From the IMG/VR virus record IMGVR_UViG_3300009703_001822: a stretch of 64,000 nt of DNA. One strand, given 5' to 3'. Made by a program: the position numbers and the translations under genes. A model generated the notes under the pieces. That model saw only the letters and a list, made by a program, of their open reading frames with translations, did not search any database and was not told the DNA's origin. The stretch is from a virus. How positions within the stretch are numbered: position 1 is the first letter of the stretch; every line of letters begins with the position of its first letter. Of the stretch, positions 21,740-56,919 are shown piece by piece.

Positions 21740-23198
21740 AATTATTAAGAAAGACGAAGTACATATAAAAGTAGATACAGATCCAAGTACTGCACAAGAA
21801 ATATGTGACTTCTTTACATTTGATGTACCCGGTGCCAGATTTATGCCACTATACAGAAAGAAAGTATGGGACGGCAAAGCAAGATTATTTAATGTGTATA
21901 ATAGAGAGTTATACATAGGACTATTACCGTATTTAAAAGAGTTTGCAGAAACACTTGAATACGATATTGAAGTAAACATGCCTAACATAGGCGAAGAGAT
22001 AGACATTGAACGATTCACTAATGAACTGAGGTTACAAGCTAATGGAAAACCTATCGAAATCCGAGACTATCAGAAACAAGCAGTTACACAGGCAATTACT
22101 ACGGGGAGAACTTTACTCTTATCTCCTACTGCTAGTGGGAAGTCTCTCATTATATACGCTCTTATTCGTTATCACCAACTAAAGGGAAGAAAACAATTAA
22201 TAATAGTTCCTACTACATCATTGGTAGAACAAATGTACGGAGACTTTCAAGACTATTCTACAGCCAATGGTTGGAAGGTACAGGAAAATTGTCATAGGAT
22301 ATATGGTGGCAAAGAAAAAACAAATGAATACCCTATAACAATAAGTACATGGCAATCTATATACAAGTATCCTAAAAAATGGTTTGAACAATTTGATGTT
22401 GTATATGGAGATGAGGCACACTTGTTTAAGGCAAAGTCTTTAACAACATTAATGAACAAACTTGTTGCAACACCTTATAGAGTAGGAACAACAGGCACAT
22501 TAGATGGCACAAAGACACATAGATTAGTATTAGAAGGTGTGTTTGGACAAGTACATAAGGTTACTACAACTAAAAAATTAATGGATGATAAACAACTTGC
22601 CAATCTTAAGATTGTTTGTTGTATGATTAACTGGAAGGACGCACATAGAAAAGAAGTTAAGGGTATGACTTACCAAGAAGAGATTGATTGGATAGTAACA
22701 CACCCAGATCGTAATGAAATTATAAAAAACTTAACTATTGCACAAGAAGGTAATACACTTGTCCTGTTTCAGTATGTGGAAAAGCATGGTGTAGTATTAC
22801 ATGAAATGATAAGTAAGGCAGTAAAAGCAAATAGAAAAGTGTTCTTTGTATATGGAGGCACAGATACAGAGGTTAGAGAAGAAATAAGAGCTATTACAGA
22901 GAAACAAGACGATGCTATTATAATTGCCTCATACGGCACATTTTCCACGGGTATAAATATAAGGAACCTACATAATATTGTTTTCGCCTCACCTAGTAAG
23001 AGTAGAATACGAAACTTACAAAGTATAGGAAGAGGTTTGAGAAAAGGAGACAACAAAGTTGAGTGTAGACTTTTTGATATAGGAGATGATTTATCCTGGA
23101 AGTCTAAAAAGAACTACACAATGAACCATTTAATAGAAAGGATCAAGCTTTATAATGAAGAAGGCTTCAATTATAAACTTGTTAAACTAGATGTCTGA
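21726..23198 (+). CDS. uvsW: SF2 helicase UvsW
   Basis: SPTASGKS, DEAH, STGINI.NLHN, LQSIGRGLR; ATG at 21726. Confidence 0.95.
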   Translation: MALIKIIKKDEVHIKVDTDPSTAQEICDFFTFDVPGARFMPLYRKKVWDGKARLFNVYNRELYIGLLPYLKEFAETLEYDIEVNMPNIGEEIDIERFTNELRLQANGKPIEIRDYQKQAVTQAITTGRTLLLSPTASGKSLIIYALIRYHQLKGRKQLIIVPTTSLVEQMYGDFQDYSTANGWKVQENCHRIYGGKEKTNEYPITISTWQSIYKYPKKWFEQFDVVYGDEAHLFKAKSLTTLMNKLVATPYRVGTTGTLDGTKTHRLVLEGVFGQVHKVTTTKKLMDDKQLANLKIVCCMINWKDAHRKEVKGMTYQEEIDWIVTHPDRNEIIKNLTIAQEGNTLVLFQYVEKHGVVLHEMISKAVKANRKVFFVYGGTDTEVREEIRAITEKQDDAIIIASYGTFSTGINIRNLHNIVFASPSKSRIRNLQSIGRGLRKGDNKVECRLFDIGDDLSWKSKKNYTMNHLIERIKLYNEEGFNYKLVKLDV

Positions 23199-23583
23199 AC
23201 AAATATCAATATTAAAACTTAAGGACGGAAGTACAATAGTAGGGAAGGTGAAAACTTCTGGAGATATAGTAGAAATAGAACATCCAATAGAATTGGTATC
23301 TAATGTAATGCCTTTGAGCGGAGTATTAGGAGAACAAATTAATTTAAGACCTTGGGTGGCTATATCTGAGGAAACAACATTCACAATTGAAAGGTATAAT
23401 GTTATTACAATAGCAACCTTACAGGAGAATTTTAGAGAAGGGTATGGTAGAATGGTGGAAACAATTTATCTTAATCCTCCAGATTGGGACGGTCCAATGA
23501 CAGAGGAAGAGATACAAGCATCAGAAGATATTGATACCCTAGCAGAGCTTGCCGAAGCTATGCTAAAGAACAAAATACATTAG
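23191..23583 (+). CDS. Conserved T4-like hypothetical protein (Sm-like fold)
   Basis: ILKLKDG..IVG N-terminus; conserved position between uvsW and gp55. Confidence 0.55.
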   Translation: MSEQISILKLKDGSTIVGKVKTSGDIVEIEHPIELVSNVMPLSGVLGEQINLRPWVAISEETTFTIERYNVITIATLQENFREGYGRMVETIYLNPPDWDGPMTEEEIQASEDIDTLAELAEAMLKNKIH

Positions 23584-23592
23584 GAGTATATT

Positions 23593-24198
23593 ATGGCAAA
23601 AAGACGTGACCCAAATTCGGCTCACTATATAAACAACAAGGAGTTCCTTGTGGCAATGACTGAATATAGGGAGTTAAGATTAGAAGCAGAAGAGAGTGGT
23701 GAGGATAGACCACGAGTAACCAACTATATAGGAGAGTGCTTTGTTAAAATAGCAAATCACTTAGCTTATAAATCCAATTTCGTAAATTATACATTTAGAG
23801 ATGAAATGATTTTAGACGGTATTGAAAATTGTCTTACATATATGGACAACTTTGATCCAGCAAAATCTAAAAATCCATTTGCATACTTTACACAAATTAC
23901 ATACTACGCATTCATTAGGCGTATTCAAAAAGAAAAAAGACAAATGGAGACTAAGTTCAAATATATTAAGAGCTTAGACATAGATCAAATTTTGGAACAG
24001 AGTGCAGACGGAAGTGAACACTCTAATGATTACCTTAGTTATATGAGAGGTATCATTGAACAGGCAGAGGCAGATAACGCAGCTGCTGATAAAGCTAATG
24101 AAGGTAAGAAAGTTCATAAGCGTAGACCAAAATACTTAGACGAAAAAATTAAGGCAGAAGAGGCAGAAAAGGCCAAAAAAGGTAAACAAGACTCTTGA
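23593..24198 (+). CDS. gp55: Late-transcription sigma factor gp55
   Basis: HYINNKEF, NFVNYTFRDEMILDGIEN, NPFAYFTQI.YYAF.RRI.KEK. Confidence 0.95.
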   Translation: MAKRRDPNSAHYINNKEFLVAMTEYRELRLEAEESGEDRPRVTNYIGECFVKIANHLAYKSNFVNYTFRDEMILDGIENCLTYMDNFDPAKSKNPFAYFTQITYYAFIRRIQKEKRQMETKFKYIKSLDIDQILEQSADGSEHSNDYLSYMRGIIEQAEADNAAADKANEGKKVHKRRPKYLDEKIKAEEAEKAKKGKQDS

Positions 24199-24224
24199 TA
24201 ATAGGTTCAGGTATCATATATAAT
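24195..24224 (+). promoter_or_regulatory. Possible sigma70-like promoter for the deazaguanine cluster
   Basis: TTGATA-18nt-TATAAT, ending 8 nt before the queE ATG. Confidence 0.5.
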
Positions 24225-24232
24225 ATCACACT

Positions 24233-25114
24233 ATGGCAAAGTTAAGATATAGCGAAGCATTTTATAGCGTACAAGGTGAGGGTAGATTCGTAGGTGTTCC
24301 TAGTGTCTTCCTAAGAGTCTTTGGTTGCAATTTTGAATGTAGAGGTTTTGGACAGGAACGAGGCAATATTATTCCTGTAGAAGAAATGCCCTATATGACA
24401 GACGAGCGTGCTGAAAAAACACATGAACTGGCATACAAATCCATAGAAGAACTTCCTGTTACACCTATTGGGTGTGATAGTTCTGCCTCATGGGCTATGA
24501 AATACAAACATCTACAACTAACAAAGACAACAGACGAGGTGTTTGAACATATTGTAAGTTTACTTCCTAATGGTAAATTTAATGAGAGTGAAGACATACA
24601 TCTTGTTATTACAGGTGGTGAACCTTTACTAGGTTGGCAAAGAGTATGGCCTGAATTATTAGAAATGTGTAAAGAAATAGGTTTGAAAAATGTAACCTAT
24701 GAAACAAATGGCACACAGAATTTACAACAACAATTTATTGACTACCTAAATGGAGATGGTAAAGACATACATATTACATGGTCCACATCTCCTAAATTAT
24801 CTATCTCAGGTGAAGAACAATTTGACGCACTTATACCTGAGGCACTATTAGATATGAATATGGTAAGCAATAGTCATCTATATAATAAATTTGTCGTCAG
24901 AGATATAGAAGACTTTAAAGAAGTAGATATCTTCGTGGAGGCTTACAAAGAGGCAGGTGTAAAACTAGATGCCATTTATTGTATGCCTGAAGGAGCTACA
25001 TTAGAACAACAACATTTGACGGCAAAAGGTGTTGCAGACGCTTGTATGCAGACAGGTTACAAGTATAGCCCTAGATTACATATAGATTTGTTTGGCAATG
25101 CCTGGGGAACTTAA
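24233..25114 (+). CDS. queE: 7-carboxy-7-deazaguanine synthase (radical SAM)
   Basis: E.FYSVQGEG...VFLR..GCN, TGGEP, ETNG, SPK, SPRLH. Confidence 0.92.
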   Translation: MAKLRYSEAFYSVQGEGRFVGVPSVFLRVFGCNFECRGFGQERGNIIPVEEMPYMTDERAEKTHELAYKSIEELPVTPIGCDSSASWAMKYKHLQLTKTTDEVFEHIVSLLPNGKFNESEDIHLVITGGEPLLGWQRVWPELLEMCKEIGLKNVTYETNGTQNLQQQFIDYLNGDGKDIHITWSTSPKLSISGEEQFDALIPEALLDMNMVSNSHLYNKFVVRDIEDFKEVDIFVEAYKEAGVKLDAIYCMPEGATLEQQHLTAKGVADACMQTGYKYSPRLHIDLFGNAWGT

Positions 25115-25116
25115 TT

Positions 25117-25317
25117 ATGAAATGGTGGAAAATACTATGGCAACAAAATCCTGAAAAGGATATTGATACATACAAAGAACCTGATCCAGATGAAGTAACA
25201 ATAGACAATGCTTACAAGACAAGATGGATTTGGTATCATACTATATTAGCAGTAGAATTATTATTGGTTGTTATTATACAACTTTGTATATTACTATTAT
25301 TGGCGGTAAAACTTTGA
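25117..25317 (+). CDS. Small membrane protein
   Basis: C-terminal hydrophobic helix. Confidence 0.5.
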   Translation: MKWWKILWQQNPEKDIDTYKEPDPDEVTIDNAYKTRWIWYHTILAVELLLVVIIQLCILLLLAVKL

Positions 25318-25568
25318 GTGTCAATTTAGTAAAATTAAATAATGGAGAACTCGTGTACGGTGAGAAAGAGGAAATAAAAGAATACTGTGAACAAAAGGAA
25401 ACAGATGTAGAAACTTGGTATAACTATGTTGCTCCTAGTACGGTACAATCTCATTTCACATACATAGGTAAAAGAATGTGTGATCCTTATTCAATAGCAA
25501 GACCTATTTACCAAAGAGATGAGAATGGAGAGTATGTAGGTCTTACGGAGTTTAAAGAAAAATGGTAG
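25314..25568 (+). CDS. Hypothetical protein
   Basis: Probable TTG start overlapping the upstream stop; fills the operon gap. Confidence 0.45.
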   Translation: MSVNLVKLNNGELVYGEKEEIKEYCEQKETDVETWYNYVAPSTVQSHFTYIGKRMCDPYSIARPIYQRDENGEYVGLTEFKEKW

Positions 25569-25987
25569 GTGACGCAATAAAACTTTATGTATCATGGGAT
25601 GATGTTAATGCCATGGTCTTCAAATTATACAAACAATTAAAGAATGAGAACATAGACAAAGTGGTAGGTATATCACGAGGTGGATTGATACCAGGTGTTA
25701 TGCTTTCTCATTGGCTAGATGCTGGCTTTGAACCTCTTGAATGGCAAACCAGAGATGGAGAGTTTCAGGATAAGATTAAAGCTAACGGGTTCAACAAAAA
25801 TTTAAGAGGCACCATTTTTGTTGATGATATTTGTGATAGTGCCTTAACAATTAATCAGATCAAGGAAATTATTCCAAAGAGCCGGTGGGCTGTATTACAC
25901 CAAAAAGCTGATATAGAGCTTGACTTTGTAGCCGAAAGACTGCATAATAACGACAAAAGATGGATAATTTACCCTTGGGAGGAGTAA
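25562..25987 (+). CDS. Type I phosphoribosyltransferase (Gpt-like)
   Basis: GISRGG, IFVDDICDS PRPP motif, WIIYPWE. Confidence 0.85.
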   Translation: MVGDAIKLYVSWDDVNAMVFKLYKQLKNENIDKVVGISRGGLIPGVMLSHWLDAGFEPLEWQTRDGEFQDKIKANGFNKNLRGTIFVDDICDSALTINQIKEIIPKSRWAVLHQKADIELDFVAERLHNNDKRWIIYPWEE

Positions 25988-26005
25988 TCTCATACAGGAG
26001 AAAAT

Positions 26006-26686
26006 ATGATTAGTAAAGAGATAATAGCAAGACTAAAGGACAAAGGCAAACGCTTTTATGCTGGTGATAATATATCAGAAGTCCTAGAGCCTGGCGACAA
26101 GGAGAAACTAATTGACGAACTACAAGGCAAGTTCTATGAAGTTCTAAAGTCATTAGTTATTGATACAGAAAACGATCCTAACAGTATGGACACACCTAGG
26201 CGATTAGCAAAGATGTATGTTAATGAAATTATGTCAGGTAGGTATAACACTATGCCTAACCCTAATGCTTTTCCTAATTATGTGGAAGGCGGATATGAAG
26301 GCATGTTGGTAGTGAGAAGTGAATTAAAAAGTATGTGTTCACATCATCATCAACCTGTTACAGGTATTGCATACATAGGAATAATTGCTGGTGATAAACT
26401 ATTAGGTTTATCTAAATACACAAGGATAGCACAATGGTGTGCTAGACGAGGTACATTACAAGAAGAACTTAATGTAATGATAGCAGATGAAATCCAGAGG
26501 CAATGTGAAACAGAACATGTAGGAGTCTATATACAGGCAACACATGGTTGTTGCGAGAATAGAGGCATAATGGCTAACAGTTCTTTAACACAGACTACTG
26601 TTTTACGAGGTGGTTTTAAGAAAGAAGACTTGAAGAAAGAATTCTTTGATAATATAACACAACAACAAATGGTATCACCTAGATAA
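26006..26686 (+). CDS. folE: GTP cyclohydrolase I
   Basis: TPRRLAKMY, SMCSHH, GLSKY.R, LQEE, HGC...RG. Confidence 0.95.
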   Translation: MISKEIIARLKDKGKRFYAGDNISEVLEPGDKEKLIDELQGKFYEVLKSLVIDTENDPNSMDTPRRLAKMYVNEIMSGRYNTMPNPNAFPNYVEGGYEGMLVVRSELKSMCSHHHQPVTGIAYIGIIAGDKLLGLSKYTRIAQWCARRGTLQEELNVMIADEIQRQCETEHVGVYIQATHGCCENRGIMANSSLTQTTVLRGGFKKEDLKKEFFDNITQQQMVSPR

Positions 26687-27195
26687 TGGATATTAATAGT
26701 AAACATATAGTAGTAGATTTAGAAACTTTAAGTACACATTCTAATGCGTGTATAGTTTCTATTGGAGCGTGTCTTGTAGAAAATTTAGAAATTACAGACA
26801 CATTTTATATTAATGTAAACGGAGTCGAAGGACGACAGGCAGGATTACATGTTGAAACGGAAACGATTAAGTGGTGGGAAGAACAACCTAAAGAGGCAAG
26901 AGAGGCATGGCAACGAGATCCACAACCTCTCAAAGATTCTTTGGAGTCTTTCAGTAAGTATTATGGCATTGATTCTATTCCTATTTGGGGTTATGGCGCT
27001 AACTTTGATGTAGTCATATTAGAAAATGCTTACAGAGCTATGGGTATGCAAATACCTTGGAAGTTCTGGGACATATACTGTTTAAGAACTCTAATGAATG
27101 TATTAGATAGGAGACTCCCTAAGGCAAATAATCATAATGCTTTGGACGATGCAACAGCCCAAGCAAATATGTTAATTGAAATATTGAAAACATGA
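26686..27195 (+). CDS. DEDDh 3'-5' exonuclease (DexA/DUF5051-like)
   Basis: VDLETL, W..GANFD..IL, HNALDDA. Confidence 0.85.
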   Translation: MDINSKHIVVDLETLSTHSNACIVSIGACLVENLEITDTFYINVNGVEGRQAGLHVETETIKWWEEQPKEAREAWQRDPQPLKDSLESFSKYYGIDSIPIWGYGANFDVVILENAYRAMGMQIPWKFWDIYCLRTLMNVLDRRLPKANNHNALDDATAQANMLIEILKT

Positions 27196-28460
27196 GTAGA
27201 CAATTAGATTATGTAGTTTCAGGCACTTCCTATATGAGGTTTAGTAACCCTGGGATTGCTAAGGACGAAACAAATTCACAGATTATTAATATGTTACTAG
27301 ATAAATTGGTAACAGGCGTGCATTCACACAAATTTTCTATGCTATACAACGGACATACAGAGTCTAGTTTTGGAGAAAGATTCCTAGCATATAAAGATCA
27401 TGTACATAGTATCCATGCAGACTCAGGTGGCTTACAAATTGTTACACAAGGTATGACTATTACTGATGAACTCAAAGATAAAGTATATGAGAACCAAGCA
27501 GAGTGGGCAGATGTAGGTATGTGTTTTGATGAGATACCTGTAATACTTACAGGCGATAGATCAGACAGAAACGATACTAAACAAAGGTTCTTTGACTTTG
27601 AAAACTACGAAGAGCTAGCTAGGAAAACAGGTCGTAATATAAAACGACAACTAGAAGTATTTGATAGTAAGGAAAGCACTTGCAAACCTTATATTATTCT
27701 ACAAGGTAATTGTGTAGACACATATTTAAGATGGTATGAACTATTGTTAGAACAGATACCTGCAGAGTGGCATGATAGAATAGGTGGTGTGGCAATGGGA
27801 GCAGCAGCACTAGGTACAGGTCCTTTAGAAGATGTAAAAAGAGCTTTTATTGCTAGTGAAATTGCTAAGTTCTGGCCACAAGATAAAATGCACTTACATG
27901 TATTAGGTGTAGGTAGTATTAGGCGTATAATTCCTTATCTAGTCTTTTGTCAGAACGGTTTATATGATAATGTAGATATATCATATGACTCTACAACTCA
28001 TAGTAGGGCGGTTGAGACAGGGTTATATTACATGGGACAAGGCACAACTAAGTTCAGTAGAAAAATGTCCAATTTGTATCGAGAAATGTACGATAATGTG
28101 CAGGAAACTGTCCAATTGGGAGTAGATTTAGACGAATTTCACACTATTATGAACACACCTAGCATGAAGGCAAAAGAGAAATATGGCAACTTGAACAAGT
28201 GGATATATGTTAGAACAGCATTTATCCTTATGTCCATACAAAACTTTATGAAACACCTAGAAACTATGATGTTAGATGAAGAAGCACTAATTAAATTTAC
28301 GGGTAAGATGAAACTTGACGGACAGTTCAGGAACCTCTATAATGTACGCAATAAAGATGATTTTAACTATTGGGAGAACAACCAATACTTAGGTGGAGCA
28401 ATGAAATCTATGGCAGTAGGTAGTGAACCACCAGCAAGTTTAGAGGATTTATTTACATGA
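27192..28460 (+). CDS. dpdA: DNA guanine transglycosylase (DpdA-like, TGT fold)
   Basis: ADSGG.Q, FDEIP, LQG, HLHVLG, SYDST TGT-family motifs; located in a folE/queD/queE cluster. Confidence 0.75.
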   Translation: MSRQLDYVVSGTSYMRFSNPGIAKDETNSQIINMLLDKLVTGVHSHKFSMLYNGHTESSFGERFLAYKDHVHSIHADSGGLQIVTQGMTITDELKDKVYENQAEWADVGMCFDEIPVILTGDRSDRNDTKQRFFDFENYEELARKTGRNIKRQLEVFDSKESTCKPYIILQGNCVDTYLRWYELLLEQIPAEWHDRIGGVAMGAAALGTGPLEDVKRAFIASEIAKFWPQDKMHLHVLGVGSIRRIIPYLVFCQNGLYDNVDISYDSTTHSRAVETGLYYMGQGTTKFSRKMSNLYREMYDNVQETVQLGVDLDEFHTIMNTPSMKAKEKYGNLNKWIYVRTAFILMSIQNFMKHLETMMLDEEALIKFTGKMKLDGQFRNLYNVRNKDDFNYWENNQYLGGAMKSMAVGSEPPASLEDLFT

Positions 28461-29014
28461 ACATATTTTTACTACATGAAAATCCTGTACTATGTGCAGA
28501 ACAGCATTGTGATAAACATGTCGTTAAAATGGTTATTGAGTACGCACAGCTCATGTCAACAGCACACCGGGTATTAGACGGAGATCTATATGAAGACAAA
28601 ACAGCAGCAGGAAGACGAATTAAAAGATGGCGACATCCTAATTCTAATATGGAGGCTACACTTTACAAGGCTAGCCACATCAATCACCCAGATGGTATAT
28701 GGGTTAGAAGCAGTGATGCCAATTATAATTACCTATATAATCTATGGTGTAGGTTATCTGAGGAATATACTCACAGGTATGGTAGGACACACTTGACACA
28801 GGAAAAACTAGAAAATTTACTTAGGTTTGCTCCTAAGAATATTGAACATGCACCAATGGCAGATGTCCATGGCTTGCCACTTGCTATGCCAGATGATGTA
28901 AAAGGTAAGAGTGTAGTAAAATCTTATCGTAGGTATTACAACAAATACAAAATTGACTTTGCTAAATATACAAACAGAGAGGAACCAGAATGGCTATTAA
29001 GAACAGGTACATAA
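28457..29014 (+). CDS. Pyrimidine-dimer DNA glycosylase (DenV-like) family protein
   Basis: MNIF.L...P..CA..HCDKHVVKM..E.AQL, NHP..IW, EYTHRYG..H. Confidence 0.75.
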   Translation: MNIFLLHENPVLCAEQHCDKHVVKMVIEYAQLMSTAHRVLDGDLYEDKTAAGRRIKRWRHPNSNMEATLYKASHINHPDGIWVRSSDANYNYLYNLWCRLSEEYTHRYGRTHLTQEKLENLLRFAPKNIEHAPMADVHGLPLAMPDDVKGKSVVKSYRRYYNKYKIDFAKYTNREEPEWLLRTGT

Positions 29015-29376
29015 AAGTATCATTTCAAAGAGAAGGAATACATAAGTTTCCAGGAGCAGATACAAATCCTGATTATGCTACAGGTGACTGGCGAGATGTT
29101 AGTTTCCTAGGTTATCCTCATAGGCATATCTTTTATTTTTATGTAACACTAGGTGTTTCTCATAACGATAGAGATGTAGAGTTCATACAATTTAAGCGAG
29201 AACTAGAAAGACAGTTTGAACAAGGAACATTACAACTAGATTACCAGTCTTGTGAGATGATAGCAGAGTCTCTTATAAATTATATAGAAGAGAAGTATCC
29301 TAATCGTGCAGTAAGAGTTGAAGTGTATGAAGATAATGAAAATGGAGGCATACTAGAGAATGATTTATTTAATTGA
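28990..29376 (+). CDS. T-fold protein, candidate CDG decarboxylase (DpdL-like)
   Basis: LGYPHRHIF (LxxxHRHxF), EFIQFK, SCEMIA QueD-like elements; a second T-fold gene in the cluster. Confidence 0.6.
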   Translation: MAIKNRYIKVSFQREGIHKFPGADTNPDYATGDWRDVSFLGYPHRHIFYFYVTLGVSHNDRDVEFIQFKRELERQFEQGTLQLDYQSCEMIAESLINYIEEKYPNRAVRVEVYEDNENGGILENDLFN

Positions 29377-30424
29377 TTTAGAATATGTCGAGACACGATA
29401 CACAGCACAATGGAAAACAGAATTTCCTCAGCAAATAGCAGATCAAACAGGACAAGATATAACAGTTATTGAAGGTCCAGAAGATATTGCAGCGTGTACA
29501 ACACCAGGTGCCTTCTTAAACTTTGCAGGCACAAACATATACAAATCAGAACAAGTAAAACTTCTTGCAGAATATTTTAACAACAATGAGATTAAGAACG
29601 GAGATCATTTTGTCTTTGCAGACGCTTGGCATCCAGGTATTCTTAATCTTAAATACATGTTAGATTTATTTCAGATAGATGCAACAATACATGCACTATG
29701 GCATGCAGGCAGTTATGATCCTCAGGATTTTTTAGGTAGATTAATAGGAAATAAACCTTGGGTTAGGCATACAGAACTAGCTTTCTTTGATGCTATAGAT
29801 AAAAACTATTTTGCTAGTAACTTTCATATTGAATTATTTGTTAATACAATGTTTCCTGGCAATAATGATCCTGAATATTTAAATAGTAAAATTGTTAGAA
29901 CAGGTTGGCCTATGGAATACTTAGGCAACTATATACAACCTCAAAGATTAGTGAAAGAAGATATTATTTTGTTTCCTCACAGGGACGCACCCGAGAAACA
30001 ATTAAATATATTTCAAGACTTGGCAAAAGAATTGCCACAGTATAAATGGATTAATTGTAATGAATTGAATCTTACGAAACCAGAATACAATTCATTATTG
30101 GAACAATCTAAAATGGTTTTCTCAGCAAACTTACAAGAGACATTAGGTATTAGCTGTTATGAAATACTAATGGCAGGTGGTATTCCACTTGTACCTAACA
30201 GACTTTCTTATGTAGAAATGTATGAGGATATATTTAAGTATCCTTCTATTTGTACATTAGACTGGAAAGGCTATCAGGATAATAAACAAATGCTTATAGG
30301 AAAGATAGAAACAATGATGGAAAATTTCCAAGCAGAAGAAATACAAACGGCAATTAAGAATAATAGAACAATGTTGCAGGAGGAATACTTTACGGCAACA
30401 AACTTATATCAGGAGTTAAGATGA
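29360..30424 (+). CDS. GT-B glycosyltransferase
   Basis: LFPHR.APEKQ, ETLGIS..E...G.IP.VP (GT4-like ExxG..xxE), WHAG. Confidence 0.75.
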   Translation: MIYLIDLEYVETRYTAQWKTEFPQQIADQTGQDITVIEGPEDIAACTTPGAFLNFAGTNIYKSEQVKLLAEYFNNNEIKNGDHFVFADAWHPGILNLKYMLDLFQIDATIHALWHAGSYDPQDFLGRLIGNKPWVRHTELAFFDAIDKNYFASNFHIELFVNTMFPGNNDPEYLNSKIVRTGWPMEYLGNYIQPQRLVKEDIILFPHRDAPEKQLNIFQDLAKELPQYKWINCNELNLTKPEYNSLLEQSKMVFSANLQETLGISCYEILMAGGIPLVPNRLSYVEMYEDIFKYPSICTLDWKGYQDNKQMLIGKIETMMENFQAEEIQTAIKNNRTMLQEEYFTATNLYQELR

Positions 30425-30876
30425 GAGATTACAAATACTACTCAACAAAAACCTATGGACATGAAGAAGGTCTTTCATGTATGTTTAGACAACCTTTAGC
30501 AACGCATAGTCATTGTAGTTTACTACATGGTTACGCTTTGTCTTTTAGTTTCAAGTTTGGTTGTAACCACCTTGACGATAAAAATTGGGTAGTTGATTTT
30601 GGAGATTTAAAAGACTTAAAGGCATGGTTAAAAGATTCTTTTGATCACAAACATGCAGTGGCTAAAGACGATCCTGAACTACAAGAGTTTTTATTAATAG
30701 AACAAAAAGGATTATCAGAAGTAAGAGTAATGAACGGAGTAGGATGTGAAAAGTTTGCAGAACAAGCTTTCCATTTTGCTAATGATTTAGTAAGCAAAAA
30801 AAGTAATGGTAGATGTTATTGCGTATCATGTGAAGTTCGAGAACACGGAGCTAACAGCGCAATATACGAGGGCTAA
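30421..30876 (+). CDS. queD: 6-carboxy-tetrahydropterin synthase (variant)
   Basis: HC.LLHGY, VVDFGDLK, FDHK, CEKFA, EVRE...NSA.Y. Confidence 0.85.
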   Translation: MRDYKYYSTKTYGHEEGLSCMFRQPLATHSHCSLLHGYALSFSFKFGCNHLDDKNWVVDFGDLKDLKAWLKDSFDHKHAVAKDDPELQEFLLIEQKGLSEVRVMNGVGCEKFAEQAFHFANDLVSKKSNGRCYCVSCEVREHGANSAIYEG

Positions 30877-30878
30877 TT

Positions 30879-31940
30879 ATGAAAGTAGCCCTTGTTACAG
30901 ACACCCATTTTGGTGCCAGATCAGATAGTTTAGCATTTGATGCTTACTTTGCCAAATTTTATGATGAATGTTTCTTTCCTTACTTAGAGAAGGAAGGTAT
31001 AAAAACAGTATGTCATTTAGGTGATATATTTGATAGGCGTAAGTATATAAATTTTAATACTTTGAAGTCTTGTAAAAGATATTTCTTTCAGAAGGCACAG
31101 GATTTAGGTATTGAAATACACATGATTCCAGGTAATCATGATACTTATTTTAAAAATACAAATGATGTAAACAGCCCTGACTTATTGTTAGGAGAATACA
31201 ATAACATAATATTATATCAGGAACCTACTGAGATAATGTTAGACAGACATAAGGTATTATATTTACCTTGGATATGTGGAGAAAATTATGACAGGACTAT
31301 GGCCAAAATTAAAGAGTCTGACGCAAAGACTTGCTTCGGACATTTCGAATTCGCAGGTTACTTCCTTCTGCCTGGAATGCCTAATCTCCATGGCATGGAT
31401 ACTGACGCTTTTACTGATTTTAATCTTGTGGTCAGTGGCCACTTTCATCATCGTCATAGCAGAGGCAATATTACATACATGGGAAACCCTTATGAAATCA
31501 CTTGGTCTGACTACAAAGACCCTCGTGGATTCGCCTTATTCGATACGGTTAAAGGAGATTTGGAATACATCAACAACCCGTTTAGAATCTTCCACAAAGT
31601 TTATTACGACGATTCAGATTTCGAAGGTAGCAATGCTCTTAGCAATTTTGATTTTAATAGTATTGTTGGTGGTAGTGTTAAATTAATAGTAACAAAGAAA
31701 ACAGACTTCTCTAAATTTGATAACTTCGTAGATAAATTATATACATGTAATCTAATTGATCTTAAAATTATAGAAGACTTCTCAGAGTTTGAAGACGAAG
31801 CTCTAGGAGAAGATATAGATTTAGAGGATACAATGACACTACTAAAAGAATATGTAGATGTTGTTGAAACAGATTTAGATAAACAAAGGATTAAGAACTT
31901 ACTACAAAGCCTCTACATCGAGGCACAAGATACAGTATGA
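30879..31940 (+). CDS. gp47: Recombination nuclease gp47 (Mre11/SbcD-like)
   Basis: TDTHFG, LGD.FD.R, GNHD, SGHFH. Confidence 0.95.
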   Translation: MKVALVTDTHFGARSDSLAFDAYFAKFYDECFFPYLEKEGIKTVCHLGDIFDRRKYINFNTLKSCKRYFFQKAQDLGIEIHMIPGNHDTYFKNTNDVNSPDLLLGEYNNIILYQEPTEIMLDRHKVLYLPWICGENYDRTMAKIKESDAKTCFGHFEFAGYFLLPGMPNLHGMDTDAFTDFNLVVSGHFHHRHSRGNITYMGNPYEITWSDYKDPRGFALFDTVKGDLEYINNPFRIFHKVYYDDSDFEGSNALSNFDFNSIVGGSVKLIVTKKTDFSKFDNFVDKLYTCNLIDLKIIEDFSEFEDEALGEDIDLEDTMTLLKEYVDVVETDLDKQRIKNLLQSLYIEAQDTV

Positions 31941-33634
31941 TACATTTTAAAAATATTAAATGGAAGAACTTCCTATCTACAGGTAATGCATGGACAGAGA
32001 TAGATTTAGATAAGAGTCCTAGTACATTAATTGTAGGAGAGAACGGCTCTGGTAAATCCACTTTACTAGATGCTTTGACTTTTGCACTATTTAATAAACC
32101 TTTTAGAAATGTCTCGAAGCCTCAACTAATAAACACAATTAATAATAAAAATTGCCGTGTGGAAATTAACTTCCAAATAGGTAGCAAAAACTATTGTATA
32201 AAAAGAGGATTACAACCTAGAGTATTTGATATAGAAATAAATGGAGACAAGCTCGATAAGAATGCTAACATACGAGACTTCCAAAAATACCTAGAAGAGA
32301 ACATTTTAAAACTTAACTATAAGAGTTTTACTCAGATAGTTATGTTAGGTAGTGCGTCTTTTACACCCTTCATGCAGTTGCACTTAGGTGCTAGGCGTGA
32401 GATTATTGAGGACATATTGGACATCAGTATTTTTACAAGTATGAACTCTGTCCTTAAAACAAAATTAGTTCAATTAGAAAATGATAAAAGAATATTAGAA
32501 GGCGAAATAGAAGTAGCAAAGCAGAAAGCAAATATTCAAGAACAATATATACAAACACTAGAGGATGATAAGTCTTCTAAAATTTCAGTAATCCAACAAT
32601 CTATTAAGGAAGCAGATGAACAGATCACGGTTTCAACGGCAACAAAGAATGCTCTCGATGAGGAGAAGGCGGGTTTACATGATCCATCACATAAAAAACA
32701 ACAGCTCGAACAATACAGGACAAAGTTCGAAAGTCAAATCCAAAAGCACAGAAGAGACTTAGACTTCTTCCATAATACAGACGAGTGTCCTACATGCCAG
32801 CAAGGTATAGAGCATGATCATAAAGAGATTATGACACAAAGAGATGAGAATAAAATTTCAGAACTGGAGTCTGCTCTAATAGAACTGGATACGCAGTATA
32901 GCGAGGTAGAACAACTTGTTAAACAAGCTCTAGAGTTGGATGAAAAGATCATGGAAACTAATAATGAAATGATTACTCAACAAAGAATTATACAACGCTT
33001 ACAATTAGAGCTTAGTGATACTCAAACTAAGACAGGAAATATAACAGACGAAAAAGATAAGCTAAAGAAACTTGCAAAGAAAACATTAGGCAAAGTACAA
33101 GACAAAACTACATTAACAGAAAATGAACATTATTATGATGTAGCAAAATCTATGTTACAGGATACCGGAATCAAGACTAAAATTATAAAAGCATACTTGC
33201 CTATAATAAATAAGTTGGTTAACAAATATCTACAGGCAATGGATTTCTTTGTTCAGTTTGATTTAGATGAAACATTTAAAGAAACTATTAAGAGTAGACA
33301 CAGAGATAAATTTAGTTACGCATCCTTTAGTGAAGGCGAGAAACAAAGAATAGATCTAGCATTAGTGTTTACTTGGAGAACTATTGCTAAGATGAAAAAC
33401 TCTGCCAGCACTAACATACTATTATTAGATGAAGTGTTTGATAGCAGTTTAGACAACCAGGGTACAGACTATGTAATGTCCTTGTTGAACACAATAGGCG
33501 ATGACACGAATGTCTTCGTAATCTCGCACAAGGGTGATCAACTGTTTGACAAATTTAGATCTGTAATTAGATTTGAGAAAAGACAGAACTATTCTGTTTT
33601 AGAAAATCGGAAAAGAGAAAATGAAATTAACTAA
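31937..33634 (+). CDS. gp46: Recombination ATPase gp46 (Rad50/SbcC-like)
   Basis: GENGSGKS, CPTC hook, FSEGE, LDEVFD. Confidence 0.95.
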   Translation: MIHFKNIKWKNFLSTGNAWTEIDLDKSPSTLIVGENGSGKSTLLDALTFALFNKPFRNVSKPQLINTINNKNCRVEINFQIGSKNYCIKRGLQPRVFDIEINGDKLDKNANIRDFQKYLEENILKLNYKSFTQIVMLGSASFTPFMQLHLGARREIIEDILDISIFTSMNSVLKTKLVQLENDKRILEGEIEVAKQKANIQEQYIQTLEDDKSSKISVIQQSIKEADEQITVSTATKNALDEEKAGLHDPSHKKQQLEQYRTKFESQIQKHRRDLDFFHNTDECPTCQQGIEHDHKEIMTQRDENKISELESALIELDTQYSEVEQLVKQALELDEKIMETNNEMITQQRIIQRLQLELSDTQTKTGNITDEKDKLKKLAKKTLGKVQDKTTLTENEHYYDVAKSMLQDTGIKTKIIKAYLPIINKLVNKYLQAMDFFVQFDLDETFKETIKSRHRDKFSYASFSEGEKQRIDLALVFTWRTIAKMKNSASTNILLLDEVFDSSLDNQGTDYVMSLLNTIGDDTNVFVISHKGDQLFDKFRSVIRFEKRQNYSVLENRKRENEIN

Positions 33635-33845
33635 AACATTTTTACCATTAATATTATTTTTAACAGGCTGTAACTCACAAGGTTATTCTACTGTAGGAGA
33701 CTATACATTAGGACCTGATGAAATTAAATGTCCTGACAGTCATTTTGCCTATTGTGAAGGTAACACACCTAACAATATGGAATGTCAATGTGTAGATAGA
33801 AAGTATCAGCGAGATGTTTTCGACAGGCTGAGTGGTGGCTGGTAA
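33621..33845 (+). CDS. Small Cys-rich lipoprotein
   Basis: Signal peptide with LTG-C lipobox and four further Cys. Confidence 0.6.
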   Translation: MKLTKTFLPLILFLTGCNSQGYSTVGDYTLGPDEIKCPDSHFAYCEGNTPNNMECQCVDRKYQRDVFDRLSGGW

Positions 33846-34131
33846 AGGAAGTAAGCGTAGACCTGGAAAAGGATATGCAGATGGTTGGGATAGAATTTTT
33901 AAAAGGAAAGATATGATTACAATATATGGAAAACCAAGATGTCCTTTTTGTGATAGAGCAAAAGCATTATGTGAACAAAAAGGATTGGATTACGAATACA
34001 AAATGTTAGATGCAGATTATACTGCTGAGGAACTGTTTGAAAAAGTTCCTAATGCTAGAACATTTCCACAGATTTTTATCAATGATGAGCCTATAGGAGG
34101 CTATACAGACTTGGAGAAATTACATGGCTGA
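33832..34131 (+). CDS. Glutaredoxin (internal ATG 33913) with an in-frame basic N-terminal peptide
   Basis: CPFC, TFPQIFI...IGGY; second RBS AAGGA before 33913. Confidence 0.88.
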   Translation: MVAGKGSKRRPGKGYADGWDRIFKRKDMITIYGKPRCPFCDRAKALCEQKGLDYEYKMLDADYTAEELFEKVPNARTFPQIFINDEPIGGYTDLEKLHG

Positions 34132-34471
34132 TTTTACAGGTACAGGATATATTCCTTTACCATCTAGTCTAAACATAAAAGACAGTCCTATCCATGGACA
34201 AGGTCTTTTTGCTAAGACAGATATAAATTCAGATACTGAACTAGGAGAGTCCCATGTATTTCTTATGCAAGACTGGGACGGAGAAGAGTTCAAAAGAAAA
34301 GAATGGTTGCGTACTGCTTTAGGTGCATTTATAAATCATAGTAATACACCAAACTGTTCTGTAGAAATAAGATATAATGTAGGAGCACTTATTACATTAC
34401 AAGAAATACAAGCAGGAGATGAAATTACTGTGACATACGATGAAGAGGCATTTAAAGAATTAGGACTATGA
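34124..34471 (+). CDS. SET-domain protein 1
   Basis: SPIHGQGLFA, FINHSNTPNC, IQAGDEITVTY. Confidence 0.85.
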   Translation: MADFTGTGYIPLPSSLNIKDSPIHGQGLFAKTDINSDTELGESHVFLMQDWDGEEFKRKEWLRTALGAFINHSNTPNCSVEIRYNVGALITLQEIQAGDEITVTYDEEAFKELGL

Positions 34472-34818
34472 GTTTTGATAAAGACACTTATCGTCCTTTA
34501 CCAAAAGGTTTAACGATAAAAGAATCTAAAATAGATGGATTAGGATTACATGCTTCTATACCTCATAGTGCAGGTACAAAGTTTGGCGAGACACATGTAT
34601 TAGTACATAGTAGAGATAGACACGAGTGGGTAAGAACACCCTTAGGAGGTTTTATAAATCATAGTAATAATCCTAATTGTTTTATAACAACAGAAGCAGG
34701 TGATAGAACATTATATGCTATAAAACCTATTAAAAAAGGAGATGAGCTAACAGTCTTTTATAGGTTCAAAGGTTATGATGGAATAATAAATAGTGACATA
34801 CAACCAGATGTAGGATAA
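34468..34818 (+). CDS. SET-domain protein 2
   Basis: SKIDGLGLHA, FINHSNNPNC, IKKGDELTVFY. Confidence 0.85.
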   Translation: MSFDKDTYRPLPKGLTIKESKIDGLGLHASIPHSAGTKFGETHVLVHSRDRHEWVRTPLGGFINHSNNPNCFITTEAGDRTLYAIKPIKKGDELTVFYRFKGYDGIINSDIQPDVG

Positions 34819-35393
34819 TGAAAAAAGAAACTATAACAGAGACAAAAGAAGTAACAGCAGTAGATGAATTACATTTATTGCCTTTTAACGACCCTTTATT
34901 AAAAAGAAAGCCAGAGCCTTTTGACTTTGACAAACAAGATGCCAAAGATATTAAACAAAAATTACTTAATAAGATGATGGATCTCGGAGGCGTAGGGTTG
35001 TCTGCAAACCAAGTAGGTTTAGATATGGCAGTCTTTGTAATAGGTGATGGCCAAATAGACGGAATGCAAAAAGCATTCTTTAATCCTATGATTATAGGTG
35101 TAGGTGATGAAACAGATTCAATGAGAGAAGGTTGTTTATCTTTTCCTGGAGTGTGGTTAATGGTTAACAGACCTAAACAGGCAATGATCAAGTACTATGA
35201 TGAAGAAGGTGAAGAACAAATGGAAACCTATGAAGGTGTAACGAGTCGTGTAATACAACACGAATACGATCACATGCTAGGGTTAAACTTCACAATGAGA
35301 GTATCTAAACTCAAATTGGATAGAGCAATGAAGGCTATAGATAAGAAGGTTAAGAAGTACCAAAGAGCCAAGAAACGCTCTAAACAAATATAA
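34818..35393 (+). CDS. def: Peptide deformylase
   Basis: GVGLSANQVG, EGCLS, QHEYDH. Confidence 0.95.
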   Translation: MKKETITETKEVTAVDELHLLPFNDPLLKRKPEPFDFDKQDAKDIKQKLLNKMMDLGGVGLSANQVGLDMAVFVIGDGQIDGMQKAFFNPMIIGVGDETDSMREGCLSFPGVWLMVNRPKQAMIKYYDEEGEEQMETYEGVTSRVIQHEYDHMLGLNFTMRVSKLKLDRAMKAIDKKVKKYQRAKKRSKQI

Positions 35394-46310: not shown

Positions 46311-46967
46311 ATGAAATTAAGCAAACAAGCTCTTGATGTACTCAAGAACTTCGCAACAATTAACACGAACATTCTAGTTCGTGAGGGTAATACACTTTCT
46401 ACAATTAGCACAGGTAAAAATATATTTGCTCGTGCTGAGATAACGGAAGCGTTCCCTAAAGAATTTGCAGTCTATGATTTAAATAGCCTGCTTTCCCTAC
46501 TTACTGTGATGGAAGATACTGATATTGACTTTGGAGATGAGAGTCTTACAGTTAGCAAAGGTAATGCTAAGTTTGAATACTTTTATGCAGATCCTAATAT
46601 TATTGTTAGTGCCCCTGATAAAAGTATTGAAGTAGATAACTTCTTTCAGTTTGACTTATCCAAAGATGACATTGACATGATCCTTAAGGCAGCAGCTATT
46701 ACAGCAGCGCCTATGTTAAGCGTGATTGGTGATGGATCTGAGGTAGTTATTACAGTAGGTGACCCTGCTACACCTAAGTCTAATTCCTTTAGACAAGTTA
46801 TAGGCACAACAGACAAAACATTCGATGCTAGACTAGCGGTAGAAAACTTTAAGGTTGTTCCTGAGGGTTATACAGTTATCCTATCCCAGAAGAAGTTTAT
46901 GTTCCTGGAGAGTAGCAAAGGTGACTTAAAGTATTGGTTGGCGCTTGAGCGTTCTTCCACAATATAG
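46311..46967 (+). CDS. gp45: Sliding clamp gp45
   Basis: MKLS......LKNFATIN, FAVYDLN, YWLALE. Confidence 0.93.
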   Translation: MKLSKQALDVLKNFATINTNILVREGNTLSTISTGKNIFARAEITEAFPKEFAVYDLNSLLSLLTVMEDTDIDFGDESLTVSKGNAKFEYFYADPNIIVSAPDKSIEVDNFFQFDLSKDDIDMILKAAAITAAPMLSVIGDGSEVVITVGDPATPKSNSFRQVIGTTDKTFDARLAVENFKVVPEGYTVILSQKKFMFLESSKGDLKYWLALERSSTI

Positions 46968-49685: not shown

Positions 49686-50105
49686 ATGAGTGATCAAGAG
49701 AATTACTTTAACATAGACTATCCAGGGTATTCACCCCTAGAAGTTTCCTTAAATGACTCAGAAGATTTTTTGAAAGTCAGGGAAACTTTATCTCGGATTG
49801 GAGTAGCTTCTAAAAAGGACAAGGTCCTTTATCAGTCATGCCATATTCTACACAAGAAAGGTAGGTACTTTATAACACACTTTAAAGAACTATTTGCTCT
49901 TGATGGCAAGGAAGCAGACTTTCAAGATAACGATTTACAAAGACGAAATACTATTGCTAAACTTTTACAAGATTGGGGTTTAGTAAGTATTATGACAGAG
50001 GTAGAAGATTACGCACCTCTAAGTCAGATTAAGATTATATCGTTTAAAGAGAAAGGTGAGTGGGAGCTAATCCCCAAATACAACATTGGAAAGAAAGTTA
50101 AATAA
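49686..50105 (+). CDS. regA: Translational repressor RegA
   Basis: DFLKVRETLSRIG, LYQSCHILHK.GRY.I.HFKE. Confidence 0.96.
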   Translation: MSDQENYFNIDYPGYSPLEVSLNDSEDFLKVRETLSRIGVASKKDKVLYQSCHILHKKGRYFITHFKELFALDGKEADFQDNDLQRRNTIAKLLQDWGLVSIMTEVEDYAPLSQIKIISFKEKGEWELIPKYNIGKKVK

Positions 50106-51369
50106 AAACCAGATACAAGCCCTTCAAATCATAAAGGACGAACAGGACAATGTAGGGCCTGGTTTCTGCGTGCTAAAATGGTATCATTTAGAAATGCACT
50201 TAGGAACAGGCGAAAGTCATTCTTGTTATCATTGCCCCACACAAAAAATTCCACTAGGAGCTGACTTACACAATACACCTCAAAAAATAGAAAAAAGAGC
50301 TGAGATGTTGCAAGGCAACAAACCTTCAGAGTGCTCTTATTGTTGGGAGGTAGAGGATCTTGATTTAATCTCAGATAGACAAACTCTTGCAGTACAATTT
50401 TTTAAACATAATCGAGATATAGTAAAAGAGGCAACTGATGCTGGCTTAGGTTATGTTTATCCTAAATATTTAGAATTATCTTTCACCAATAAATGTCAAA
50501 TGGCATGCAGTTATTGTGGACCTACATTTAGCACAGCATGGGGAAAAGAAATAGATGAGCATGGACCTTATAATTTATCTAAACCTTATAATTTACCTCA
50601 AACACCACAACTAGAAAACTCTCCCTATGTATCTAAGTTTTGGAAATGGTTTCCACAAGCATACGAACATTTATTTACTCTTAGAGTAACAGGAGGTGAA
50701 CCTTTATTAGATAAGAATACATATAAACTTCTAGAATATGTTAAAGAGCATCCTAGAAAAGGATTAACATTTCATTGTAATTCTAATCTTATGGTTTCAG
50801 CAAATAGAGTACAAAAATATATTGACCTAGTAAAAGATGTGCCTAATACAAAACTTTATGCCAGTGTTGACTCATGGGGAAAAGAAGCAGAGTATATTAG
50901 ACATGGTTTAGACATAGATCATTTTGAGGAAAATTTAATTAGATTATTAGCACAAGGAATACATGTAGGTATTATGTGTACATTTAATTTTTTATCTATT
51001 CCTAATCTTAGTGGTTTTATATTTAAGATGGCAGAACTTAAAATACAATTTGGAGATTTAATAACAATTGATATGCCTTATATGGTTTCTCCAGCACACC
51101 TTTCAGCACAAATTTCTGATGATACTCATATAAGTATAATGGAAGAAGGATTAAAAGAAATGCAACTTTATCCTTTTTCTTTAGGCGAAATAGAAAAATT
51201 TAAAAAGACTGTAGGTTGGATAAAGGCAAATAGATTTCAAGATTTAGAACTACTAAAACACAGAAGAGATTTTTGGCATTTTGTATATGAACATGATAAA
51301 AGAAGAGGCACAAATATTAAAGATGCCTTTCCTGATTTAGGATTTGATAATGATAAACTTCGAGGGTAA
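50086..51369 (+). CDS. Radical SAM protein with Twitch-like N-terminal Cys domain
   Basis: FC..KW, SCYHC, CSYCW, NKCQMACSYC, TGGEP, YIR.G. Confidence 0.82.
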   Translation: MERKLNKNQIQALQIIKDEQDNVGPGFCVLKWYHLEMHLGTGESHSCYHCPTQKIPLGADLHNTPQKIEKRAEMLQGNKPSECSYCWEVEDLDLISDRQTLAVQFFKHNRDIVKEATDAGLGYVYPKYLELSFTNKCQMACSYCGPTFSTAWGKEIDEHGPYNLSKPYNLPQTPQLENSPYVSKFWKWFPQAYEHLFTLRVTGGEPLLDKNTYKLLEYVKEHPRKGLTFHCNSNLMVSANRVQKYIDLVKDVPNTKLYASVDSWGKEAEYIRHGLDIDHFEENLIRLLAQGIHVGIMCTFNFLSIPNLSGFIFKMAELKIQFGDLITIDMPYMVSPAHLSAQISDDTHISIMEEGLKEMQLYPFSLGEIEKFKKTVGWIKANRFQDLELLKHRRDFWHFVYEHDKRRGTNIKDAFPDLGFDNDKLRG

Positions 51370-52021
51370 ATACTCAATATATAGCGCTAACAATCCTTTT
51401 ATAGCAGTGGTAGATAATTTACTACCTGATGATGTAATAGATGAATTAGCAAAAGATATAGATGAGCAGTGTAATTTTGAAAGAGCAAAGGTAGTATCAG
51501 AAGATGGTGGTTCTAAAGAGCATTATAGTAGGACAAATAAAGTAGCCAATAATTCACTTGACTACAACAAATCTCAAGCAGCACAAAACTTTTTAAAAAT
51601 TGCGAGTATGCTTATTCGCTTACACCCTTCACAGGCAGAACCTTTACAGATAGTCAAATATGATTTAGGTGAACAATACGAACCTCATAGTGATTGCTTT
51701 ACACAAGAAACATTAACAAAAAACAAACCAGAAGCAGGACAAAGAATAGCAACAGTATTATTATATTTAAATGATGTTGTAGAGGGAGGTTATACATCAT
51801 TCCCTAATATGAATATATCTGTAGAACCTAGAAAAGGTAGAGCTATAGTCTTTACTACAACACATACAGGAACAGAAAAACCTCTTGATTTAGCCAATCA
51901 TGGCGCTGAAATGGTTATTAGAGGTGAAAAAACAGCAGTAAATTTATGGTTTAGAACTGGTGTATATAACCAGGAACTCTACCAAAAAATGGAAGAACAA
52001 AGTGCAAACTCTTATAAATAG
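51344..52021 (+). CDS. 2OG-Fe(II) prolyl-4-hydroxylase-like oxygenase
   Basis: EPLQIVKY, HSD, R.AT.LLYLNDV.EGG.T.FP, H....V..GEK. Confidence 0.88.
   Translation: MIMINFEGKYSIYSANNPFIAVVDNLLPDDVIDELAKDIDEQCNFERAKVVSEDGGSKEHYSRTNKVANNSLDYNKSQAAQNFLKIASMLIRLHPSQAEPLQIVKYDLGEQYEPHSDCFTQETLTKNKPEAGQRIATVLLYLNDVVEGGYTSFPNMNISVEPRKGRAIVFTTTHTGTEKPLDLANHGAEMVIRGEKTAVNLWFRTGVYNQELYQKMEEQSANSYK
52013..52020 (+). promoter_or_regulatory. T4 late promoter for hsp20
   Basis: TATAAATA. Confidence 0.7.
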
Positions 52022-56865: not shown

Positions 56866-56919
56866 GATTAAATTTCAGGATAAGTGTCTTAAAGATCAAC
56901 AAAGTGAGATAGATAAACA

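Follow-up and report, generated by a model that had tools for sequence, protein, structure and literature searches.

Which base does a phage make when its 7-deazaguanine genes include a glycosyltransferase? The question is raised by positions 24233-30876 of a 64-kb stretch of viral DNA (IMG/VR record IMGVR_UViG_3300009703_001822; the window, hereafter, is this whole stretch). Here a single run of tightly overlapping genes on the + strand, flanked by gp55 and gp47, joins a 7-deazaguanine DNA-modification set to a glycosyltransferase (GT). Cui et al. 2023 cover eight phage 7-deazaguanine derivatives, all of them small bases substituted at position 7 (PMC10516641), and the main text of that paper holds no word starting with "glycosyl". 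The system is a variant of the known DpdL-type deazaguanine pathway, with a GT added. Taken as a whole, the evidence leaves us evenly poised on the reading that this is an early operon with which the phage replaces guanine in its own DNA, and that the final base is a glycosylated 7-deazaguanine, not plain 2'-deoxy-7-deazaguanosine (dDG). The polymerase-like tail of the DNA transglycosylase DpdA and its co-variation among phages, the assignment of this enzyme to the DpdA2 type, a QueC-like gene with its distribution, and an interleaved DpdL tree are new here. Three genes of the run carry the argument.

27192..28460, + strand: DpdA2-like DNA guanine transglycosylase (37% identity to VH7D DpdA2, E 3e-56), with the tail ...EPPASLEDLFT
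28990..29376, + strand: DpdL, a QueD paralogue and proposed decarboxylase of 7-carboxy-7-deazaguanine (CDG), with the motif LGYPHRHIF
29360..30424, + strand: GT4-like retaining GT-B glycosyltransferase, recognized by its AlphaFold2 (AF2) model, Foldseek matches and motifs

The glycosyltransferase is linked to DpdL across phages

The sequence-only reading, made from the letters of the window before this analysis, had described nine genes in the run and had drawn the GT into the pathway from its overlaps with both neighbors. A check of the open reading frames (ORFs) finds all nine genes on the + strand at those coordinates, and the GT gene does share 17 nt with the DpdL gene and 4 nt with queD. 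By its genomic context, the GT belongs to the deazaguanine pathway. DpdL is present in 99 of the 101 IMG/VR loci that hold a GT homologue (52-92% identity), mostly with a gap of less than 300 bp, and in the two loci without DpdL the GT lies at the contig edge. A metagenomic GT with 29% identity has DpdL directly upstream. In the cultured-phage database, 22 records match the GT, and every neighborhood that was opened (ACP17, X1, Phosso and a PA5oct-type phage) is a FolE/QueE cluster with DpdL; BUCT-ZZ01 carries a more distant homologue in the equivalent position. GT and DpdL are adjacent, in varying gene order, in ACP17, the PA5oct-type phages, Phosso and BUCT-ZZ01, while in X1, unlike the other cultured phages, dpdA stands between them. 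The module is present in at least five groups of cultured phages, and close relatives lacking the GT are available. The GT family comprises 1078 clusters at 50% identity, with at least 600 matching IMG/VR stretches.

A profile search finds no GT in the DpdL phages phiST, RHph_I1_18, Bakedbeans and Ahp1_CNU-2021. In the DpdL tree, the proteins of the GT-less Ahp1 and RHph_I1_18 nest among the GT-linked ones, which suggests that the GT has been gained or lost repeatedly; judged from these sequences, DpdL chemistry is probably alike with and without the GT. Since phiST DNA contains ~100% dDG (PMC10516641), the pathway is most simply pictured as a core of the dDG type to which a sugar step may be added. 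Sister clusters hold extra sugar genes, namely a second GT immediately upstream of dpdA in BUCT-ZZ01 and an epimerase-like gene in the PA5oct-type phage.

Two further arrangements were seen around these genes. On a metagenome contig, a GT homologue with 33% identity lies beside a second GT4 enzyme, a PurT-like ATP-grasp enzyme, a phosphoribosyltransferase (PRTase) and a NUDIX hydrolase, an arrangement that may be another branch of the pathway. In GT-less clusters, kinase-like genes lie beside DpdL, namely CGPG_00066 (AAA_18) of phiST, which adjoins a MazG-like gene, and a deoxynucleoside monophosphate (dNMP) kinase in Ahp1. They hint at nucleotide-level steps there.

The glycosyltransferase resembles GT4 retaining enzymes

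Four genes of the run, the TGT-like gene (DpdA), the phrog_624 gene, the T-fold gene (DpdL) and the GT, have no Pfam match at the gathering score and were examined by other means. The GT scores 15.6 bits against Pfam Glycos_transf_1, below the cut-off of 26.4, and therefore its fold and motifs, not Pfam membership, are our grounds for the label GT4-like. Its AF2 model (pLDDT 94.6, pTM 0.92) shows the two-Rossmann-domain GT-B fold. The top Foldseek matches are the GT4 retaining enzymes BshA, MshA, PimA and PglA (E 3e-11 to 1e-8, TM ~0.6-0.69), and neither T4 glucosyltransferase is among the top 50 fold matches. In an alignment of 41 homologues reaching down to 26% identity, R208, K213 and E260 are conserved in at least 90% and E268 is invariant. 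We take R208 and K213 to be the GT4 donor-binding pair, and E260 and E268 to be the catalytic EX7E motif. A search of PDB sequences with the single GT returned only noise, and the family profile reaches the solved glycosyltransferase 8xsg (E 1.7e-4). According to the model, the fold matches and the conserved residues, the GT is a real and probably active enzyme.

DpdL and a DpdA2-like transglycosylase with a polymerase-like tail

DpdL was named by Cui et al., who list ACP17 among the DpdL phages (PMC10516641). The LGYPHRHIF of the window fits the published DpdL signature LxxxHRHxF, which replaces the CxxxHGH of QueD, and the signature is present in all 80 DpdL homologues. The protein has no Pfam or NCBIfam match; it is 36% identical to phiST DpdL (CGPG_00067), and its AF2 model is a T-fold (pLDDT 93) whose top structural match is E. 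coli QueD. The FolE, QueD and QueE genes, the DpdL signature and the DpdA family member together bear out the sequence-only description of a DpdL-type 7-deazaguanine DNA-modification set that lacks queC within the window. A different architecture is seen in the 383-aa gp176 of Vibrio phage Bakedbeans, a genome with no GT homologue: the DpdL domain is the C-terminal third, and the N-terminal ~255 residues have no Pfam match.

The gene previously called TGT-like (for tRNA-guanine transglycosylase) encodes a DpdA-family enzyme. Pfam and NCBIfam models do not match it, and a PDB search with its family profile returns no sequence; 14 homologues without exception have the motifs DSGGLQ and SYDS..H, and the Atlas leads point to TGT and DpdA clusters. 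Its subfamily was assigned by homology to the protein encoded between folE and queF in Vibrio phage VH7D, which was shown experimentally to be a DpdA2 transglycosylase (PMC10516641). By this homology, the window enzyme is DpdA2-like, unlike the DpdA3 of the dDG phage phiST.

The DpdA also shares its C-terminus with the DNA polymerase of the same phage, which is encoded downstream of the sliding clamp.

46311-46967, + strand: gp45-type sliding clamp (phrog_223, E 1.7e-61)
53440-55941, + strand: gp43 DNA polymerase (phrog_262), with the C-terminal tail ...EPQATLEDLFR

An LEDLF-type tail ends two of the 282 window ORFs of at least 40 aa, gp43 (positions 55921-55941) and DpdA (28440-28460). In ACP17 and X1, the DpdA tail co-varies with the tail of the phage's own polymerase: the ACP17 polymerase ends in ...PSLDDLFE and its DpdA in ...TTLDELFE, and the X1 polymerase ends in ...SSLESLFG and its DpdA in ...QSLEELFG. 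In BUCT-ZZ01, both DpdA and the second GT carry the tail, and the DpdA2 of VH7D has none. The gp43 polymerases of T4 and RB69 bind the gp45 clamp through their extreme C-terminus. Therefore, with a tail shared with gp43 and a clamp encoded in the window, DpdA is presumed to sit on the clamp as well. These tails suggest that DpdA is tethered to the sliding clamp, and thereby how a post-replicative base exchanger could stay at the replication fork.

Among the known systems, phiST (FolE, QueD, QueE, DpdL, DpdA3; PMC10516641) is like the window in its queC-less set, its LxxxHRHxF DpdL, its DpdA-family enzyme and its place beside replication genes. The window differs in having a DpdA2-like enzyme instead of DpdA3 and in its extra GT4, Gpt-like PRTase, exonuclease and endonuclease V (EndoV)-like gene, whereas phiST has MazG-like and kinase-like genes and no GT homologue. 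Acidovorax phage ACP17 shares the core of QueD, FolE, DpdA2-like enzyme, GT, DpdL and QueE, with identities of 35% for the GT, 47% for DpdL and 33% for DpdA, and its DpdA tail likewise matches its own polymerase tail; however, its gene order is different, and its cluster is without the PRTase, the exonuclease and the EndoV-like gene. VH7D has the closest validated transglycosylase, but this phage makes preQ1 and mdPreQ1 (PMC10516641), encodes QueC, QueF and DpdM, and has neither DpdL nor GT.

The rest of the gene run

The remaining genes of the run are as follows.

24233-25114, + strand: QueE, 7-carboxy-7-deazaguanine synthase, radical SAM (phrog_2076, E 3.7e-52)
25117..25317, + strand: small hydrophobic ORF of 66 aa with a hydrophobic C-terminus, a gene call on identical contigs
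25224..25568, + strand: ORF of 114 aa from the first ATG, 94 aa as called on identical contigs
25562..25987, + strand: Gpt-like (xanthine/guanine type) phosphoribosyltransferase (PF00156, E 1.7e-6; phrog_8995, E 1.3e-28)
26006..26686, + strand: FolE, GTP cyclohydrolase I (PF01227, E 2.5e-37)
26686..27195, + strand: DEDD-type 3'-5' exonuclease, Rv2179c-like (PF16473, E 7.5e-40; phrog_255)
28457..29014, + strand: basic phrog_624 protein (phrog_624, E 3.6e-52), a distant T4 endonuclease V (Pyr_excise)-like lead
30421..30876, + strand: QueD, 6-carboxytetrahydropterin synthase (PF01242, E 9e-14; phrog_2389, E 2.5e-38)

FolE, QueD and QueE, the set for CDG synthesis, are thus encoded together (PF01227, PF01242, and phrog_2076 with QueE models). 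The Pfam matches of QueE to Fer4_12 and Radical_SAM are weak, and several NCBIfam QueE models match at ~1e-10. For the PRTase, the best NCBIfam match is the Gpt-type xanthine PRTase (PRK09177, E 2e-14), which stays under the model cut-off; the BUCT-ZZ01 and PA5oct-type clusters have a PRTase, as do 65 of the 101 IMG/VR GT loci. The exonuclease is a cluster member solely in the T4-like subgroup and BUCT-ZZ01. On either side, the DpdA gene shares 4 nt with its neighbor, the exonuclease gene before it and the phrog_624 gene after it. The phrog_624 protein (pI 8.9) occurs in just 27 of the 101 GT loci and has no Pfam or NCBIfam match. Its earlier label, DenV-like, survives as a lead from its nearest Atlas clusters, in which 10-13% of the members have PF03013, and finds no backing in Pfam itself. 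The ORF at 25224..25568 has no match in Pfam, PHROG or NCBIfam.

An uncultured T4-like lineage and its operon

All genes of the window lie on the + strand, at ~36% G+C, and they include the core set of a T4-like phage for replication and late control. Besides the clamp and the polymerase, the gp44/gp62 clamp loader, RegA, UvsX and gp41 are encoded. The features closest to the run are the following.

23593-24198, + strand: gp55 late sigma factor
24195..24224, + strand: sigma-70-like promoter-like site TTGATA-18-TATAAT, 11/12 consensus, at the 34-nt gap between gp55 and queE
30879-33634, + strand: gp47/gp46

The best cultured relatives of the gp43 polymerase are marine cyanomyophages, at an identity of just 49%, and marine metagenome contigs carry identical copies of the cluster. 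Together these point to an uncultured marine T4-like lineage. A megablast search with the cluster found no match among 50,697 phage records. As a stand-in for the whole genome, we used a relative (G001; 99% complete, 170 kb) with 89% GT identity and identical gene order.

The sigma-70-like site is a consensus match only, and such sites show no overall enrichment in the region. The T4 late-promoter motif TATAAATA occurs 19 times in the whole window, 17 times on the + strand, versus 10.1 expected, and is absent from 22960 to 35388, the stretch that holds the deazaguanine cluster. A sigma-70-like site before queE and the lack of late-promoter motifs in the cluster would fit an early operon, as far as consensus matches can indicate.

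The nature of the modified base

By homology, FolE, QueD and QueE make CDG from GTP, DpdL is a QueD paralogue marking queC-less pathways, and the DpdA2-like transglycosylase inserts the base into DNA by exchange. DpdL would convert CDG to 7-deazaguanine, as proposed for phiST. Docked on the gp45 clamp, DpdA could act just behind the replication fork. The guanine released by DpdA may be salvaged by the Gpt-like PRTase to GMP and on to GTP for FolE, and guanine salvage is the simplest role for this enzyme. The GT4-type enzyme would transfer a sugar from a nucleotide sugar onto the deazaguanine, either as the free base beside DpdL or as the inserted base. The sugar step would be an optional layer on a dDG-type core, comparable to the glucosylation on hydroxymethylcytosine (hmC) in T-even phages. 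That the DpdL-linked GT4 enzyme glycosylates 7-deazaguanine, and that the resulting sugar-bearing purine analogue is installed at the fork by a clamp-tethered DpdA, is a tentative proposal to which we give a little less than an even chance.

Two published observations favor this proposal. The virion DNA of PA5oct shows an enzyme-resistance pattern that indicates a modified G; QueE and PTPS genes were noted there, and the base was left unidentified (2025 preprint, PMC12191111). In addition, expression of dpdL and dpdA from ACP17 or phiST in E. coli yielded no dDG, and other enzymes were suggested as perhaps needed (PMC10516641). For ACP17, the GT may explain the absent product.

Several points weigh against a glycosylated base. 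The glycosylated deazaguanine is a predicted product in every GT-bearing phage, and the activity of DpdL itself is a proposed one (PMC10516641). Neither 7-deazaguanine nor CDG offers an ordinary hydroxyl acceptor, which leaves N2, O6, the carboxyl or a carbon as sites for the sugar. The nesting of GT-less DpdL phages among GT-bearing ones implies that the core pathway can do without the GT. With a pI of 4.7 the GT is acidic, its N-terminal half has few basic residues conserved in the alignment (R13, K62), and the DpdL-linked GT is never found with a polymerase-like clamp tail, unlike DpdA and the second GT of BUCT-ZZ01; its sequence therefore does not favor a DNA acceptor. These features tilt the choice of acceptor slightly, and thinly, toward the free base beside DpdL, whose product DpdA might then insert. 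Finally, relatives show that this lineage has a QueC-like gene elsewhere in the genome. A complex prediction for GT and DpdL gave a score of 0.00, which is no answer and bears neither for nor against binding.

The alternative that survives best is that the DNA base is plain dDG or dCDG (the CDG counterpart of dDG) as in phiST, and that the GT does not decorate DNA but has some other acceptor linked to the pathway: an intermediate that is glycosylated transiently, a by-product to be detoxified or exported, or a protein. A DpdL phage with no GT homologue reaches ~100% dDG, GT-less DpdL phages are interleaved with GT-bearing ones, the GT is an acidic protein with no clamp tail, and small molecules are the acceptors of BshA and MshA, the solved structures closest to it in fold. 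However, an unrelated acceptor would not predict that DpdL adjoins the GT in 99 of 101 loci and in six cultured groups with rearranged genes. The second GTs and epimerase-like genes in such clusters, and the clamp-tailed second GT of BUCT-ZZ01, point instead to sugar chemistry on DNA. We judge plain dDG or dCDG to be unlikely, although it deserves the most attention after the glycosylated base.

Could the known route through QueC explain the cluster? The sequence-only reading had stressed that queC is missing, and within the window this is so: no queC or queF is present, tblastn with VH7D QueC and QueF gives no hit, and all frames are free of the SGGxDS motif. Beyond the window the statement needs qualifying: relatives carry a divergent QueC-like gene ~53 kb downstream of the GT. 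In the 99%-complete relative, a 227-aa QueC-like PP-loop ORF (contig position 153351-154031) adjoins nrdB, 54 kb downstream of the GT, and such a gene lies 52-54 kb from the GT in four of the four relatives whose contigs extend that far. By analogy, the phage of the window would carry it at an expected coordinate of ~83 kb. The protein has an SGGFDS PP-loop and a QueC-type zinc motif (C-x8-C-x2-C-x2-C) collinear with QueC. Its PF06508 match (36 bits) covers profile positions 154-209 only, and just its C-terminal 60-80 residues align to solved or phage QueC (~80 to VH7D QueC). The Ralstonia jumbo phage RsoM2USA has a homologue with 30% identity. This gene could complete a conversion of CDG to 7-amido-7-deazaguanine (ADG) or preQ0, which the DpdA2-like enzyme would insert as the known dADG or dPreQ0; VH7D DpdA2 inserts preQ0, preQ1 and, weakly, CDG (PMC10516641).

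Nevertheless, the QueC-like protein scores 34 bits against the TIGR00364 QueC equivalog, far below the cut-off of 150, with the last ~60 residues alone aligning, and its gene lies beside nrdB, far from the cluster. No QueF is found in the relative. QueC is absent from the GT-DpdL carriers BUCT-ZZ01, ACP17, Phosso, the PA5oct-type phage and a 100%-complete 364-kb viral genome, so that the QueC-like gene appears lineage-specific and does not explain the module; moreover, this route gives neither DpdL nor the GT a role. A standard QueC/QueF route is thus unlikely, and dADG or dPreQ0 as the final base is improbable, although a contribution of the QueC-like gene in this phage, such as an amide or nitrile derivative, is possible.

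A further alternative is entry at the nucleotide level, in which the PRTase makes a 7-deazaguanine (DG) or CDG ribonucleotide, the GT acts on the nucleotide or nucleoside, and incorporation occurs at least partly through the polymerase. PRTases have a precedent in the deazapurine antibiotic pathways, in TubE and ToyH. The Gpt-like PRTase recurs in the 65 of 101 loci and in BUCT-ZZ01 and the PA5oct-type phages, the distant GT homologue has a PRTase, a NUDIX hydrolase and a second GT4 beside it, and GT-less clusters contain kinase-like and MazG-like genes. However, a clamp-tailed DpdA2-like base exchanger suffices for insertion, ACP17 and X1 have the GT-DpdL pair in clusters without a PRTase, and guanine salvage explains the PRTase more simply. 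We therefore see only a slim chance for nucleotide-level entry. A speculative idea is that DpdL works at an earlier stage, on the pterin, with QueE then yielding a 7-hydroxyalkyl deazaguanine that has a hydroxyl for the GT, but the plain dDG of phiST and the interleaved DpdL tree argue against a different chemistry in GT-bearing phages.

The glycosylated 7-deazaguanine proposed here would have few counterparts. In T-even phages, alpha- and beta-glucosyltransferases modify hmC; the window is like them in having a GT-B enzyme of a T4-like phage and possibly a second layer on a non-canonical base, and unlike them in its GT4-like enzyme with EX7E, in the lack of a hydroxymethylase (as judged from the near-complete relative), and in a purine analogue without a hydroxymethyl handle. 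T-even-style glucosylation of hydroxymethyl pyrimidines was considered and rejected: that relative has no ThyA-type hydroxymethylase (no PF00303 match), and its sole Glycos_transf_1 (PF00534)-like match is the cluster GT, which together make such a sugar unlikely. In the searched literature, the only sugar-bearing 7-deazaguanine bases of nucleic acids are galactosyl- and mannosyl-queuosine in animal transfer RNA (QTGAL, QTMAN; PMC12518689). These, however, are in RNA and not DNA, and their sugars sit on the cyclopentenediol hydroxyls of queuosine, a base that the pathway of the window cannot make. The other close natural analogues are actinomycete metabolites, huimycin among them, whose synthesis involves a preQ0-derivative glycosyltransferase. 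The same literature holds no report of a glycosylated deazaguanine, or of any glycosylated purine, in DNA.

The tight bond between GT and DpdL, kept across hundreds of phage lineages, leads us to predict DNA with a sugar-bearing purine. If true, this would be a new chemical class of anti-restriction DNA modification and a new class of target for modification-dependent defenses, for example the END nucleases that restrict PA5oct. Its carriers would be a large, widespread group of marine T4-like and jumbo phages.

Other genes in the window

A sugar donor had been sought in the nucleotide-sugar dehydrogenase-like gene at 56920. We reject this candidate: the 265-aa protein is truncated, without the C-terminal domain, and does not co-occur with the GT, its relatives in the phage database not being GT-bearing phages. 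The gene belongs to a group directly after gp43 (55938-57717), which starts with a TylF/Methyltransf_24-like methyltransferase (55938-56516) and two small ORFs.

Downstream of gp46, two tandem small genes with SET domains (PF00856; 115 and 116 aa) occupy 34124-34818, followed by a peptide deformylase and then a ClpP-like protease; the domains were called on identical contigs. At 50086-52021, in the interval from regA to the polymerase region, a 427-aa radical SAM protein is followed by an overlapping gene for a 2-oxoglutarate-Fe(II) (2OG-Fe(II)) oxygenase.

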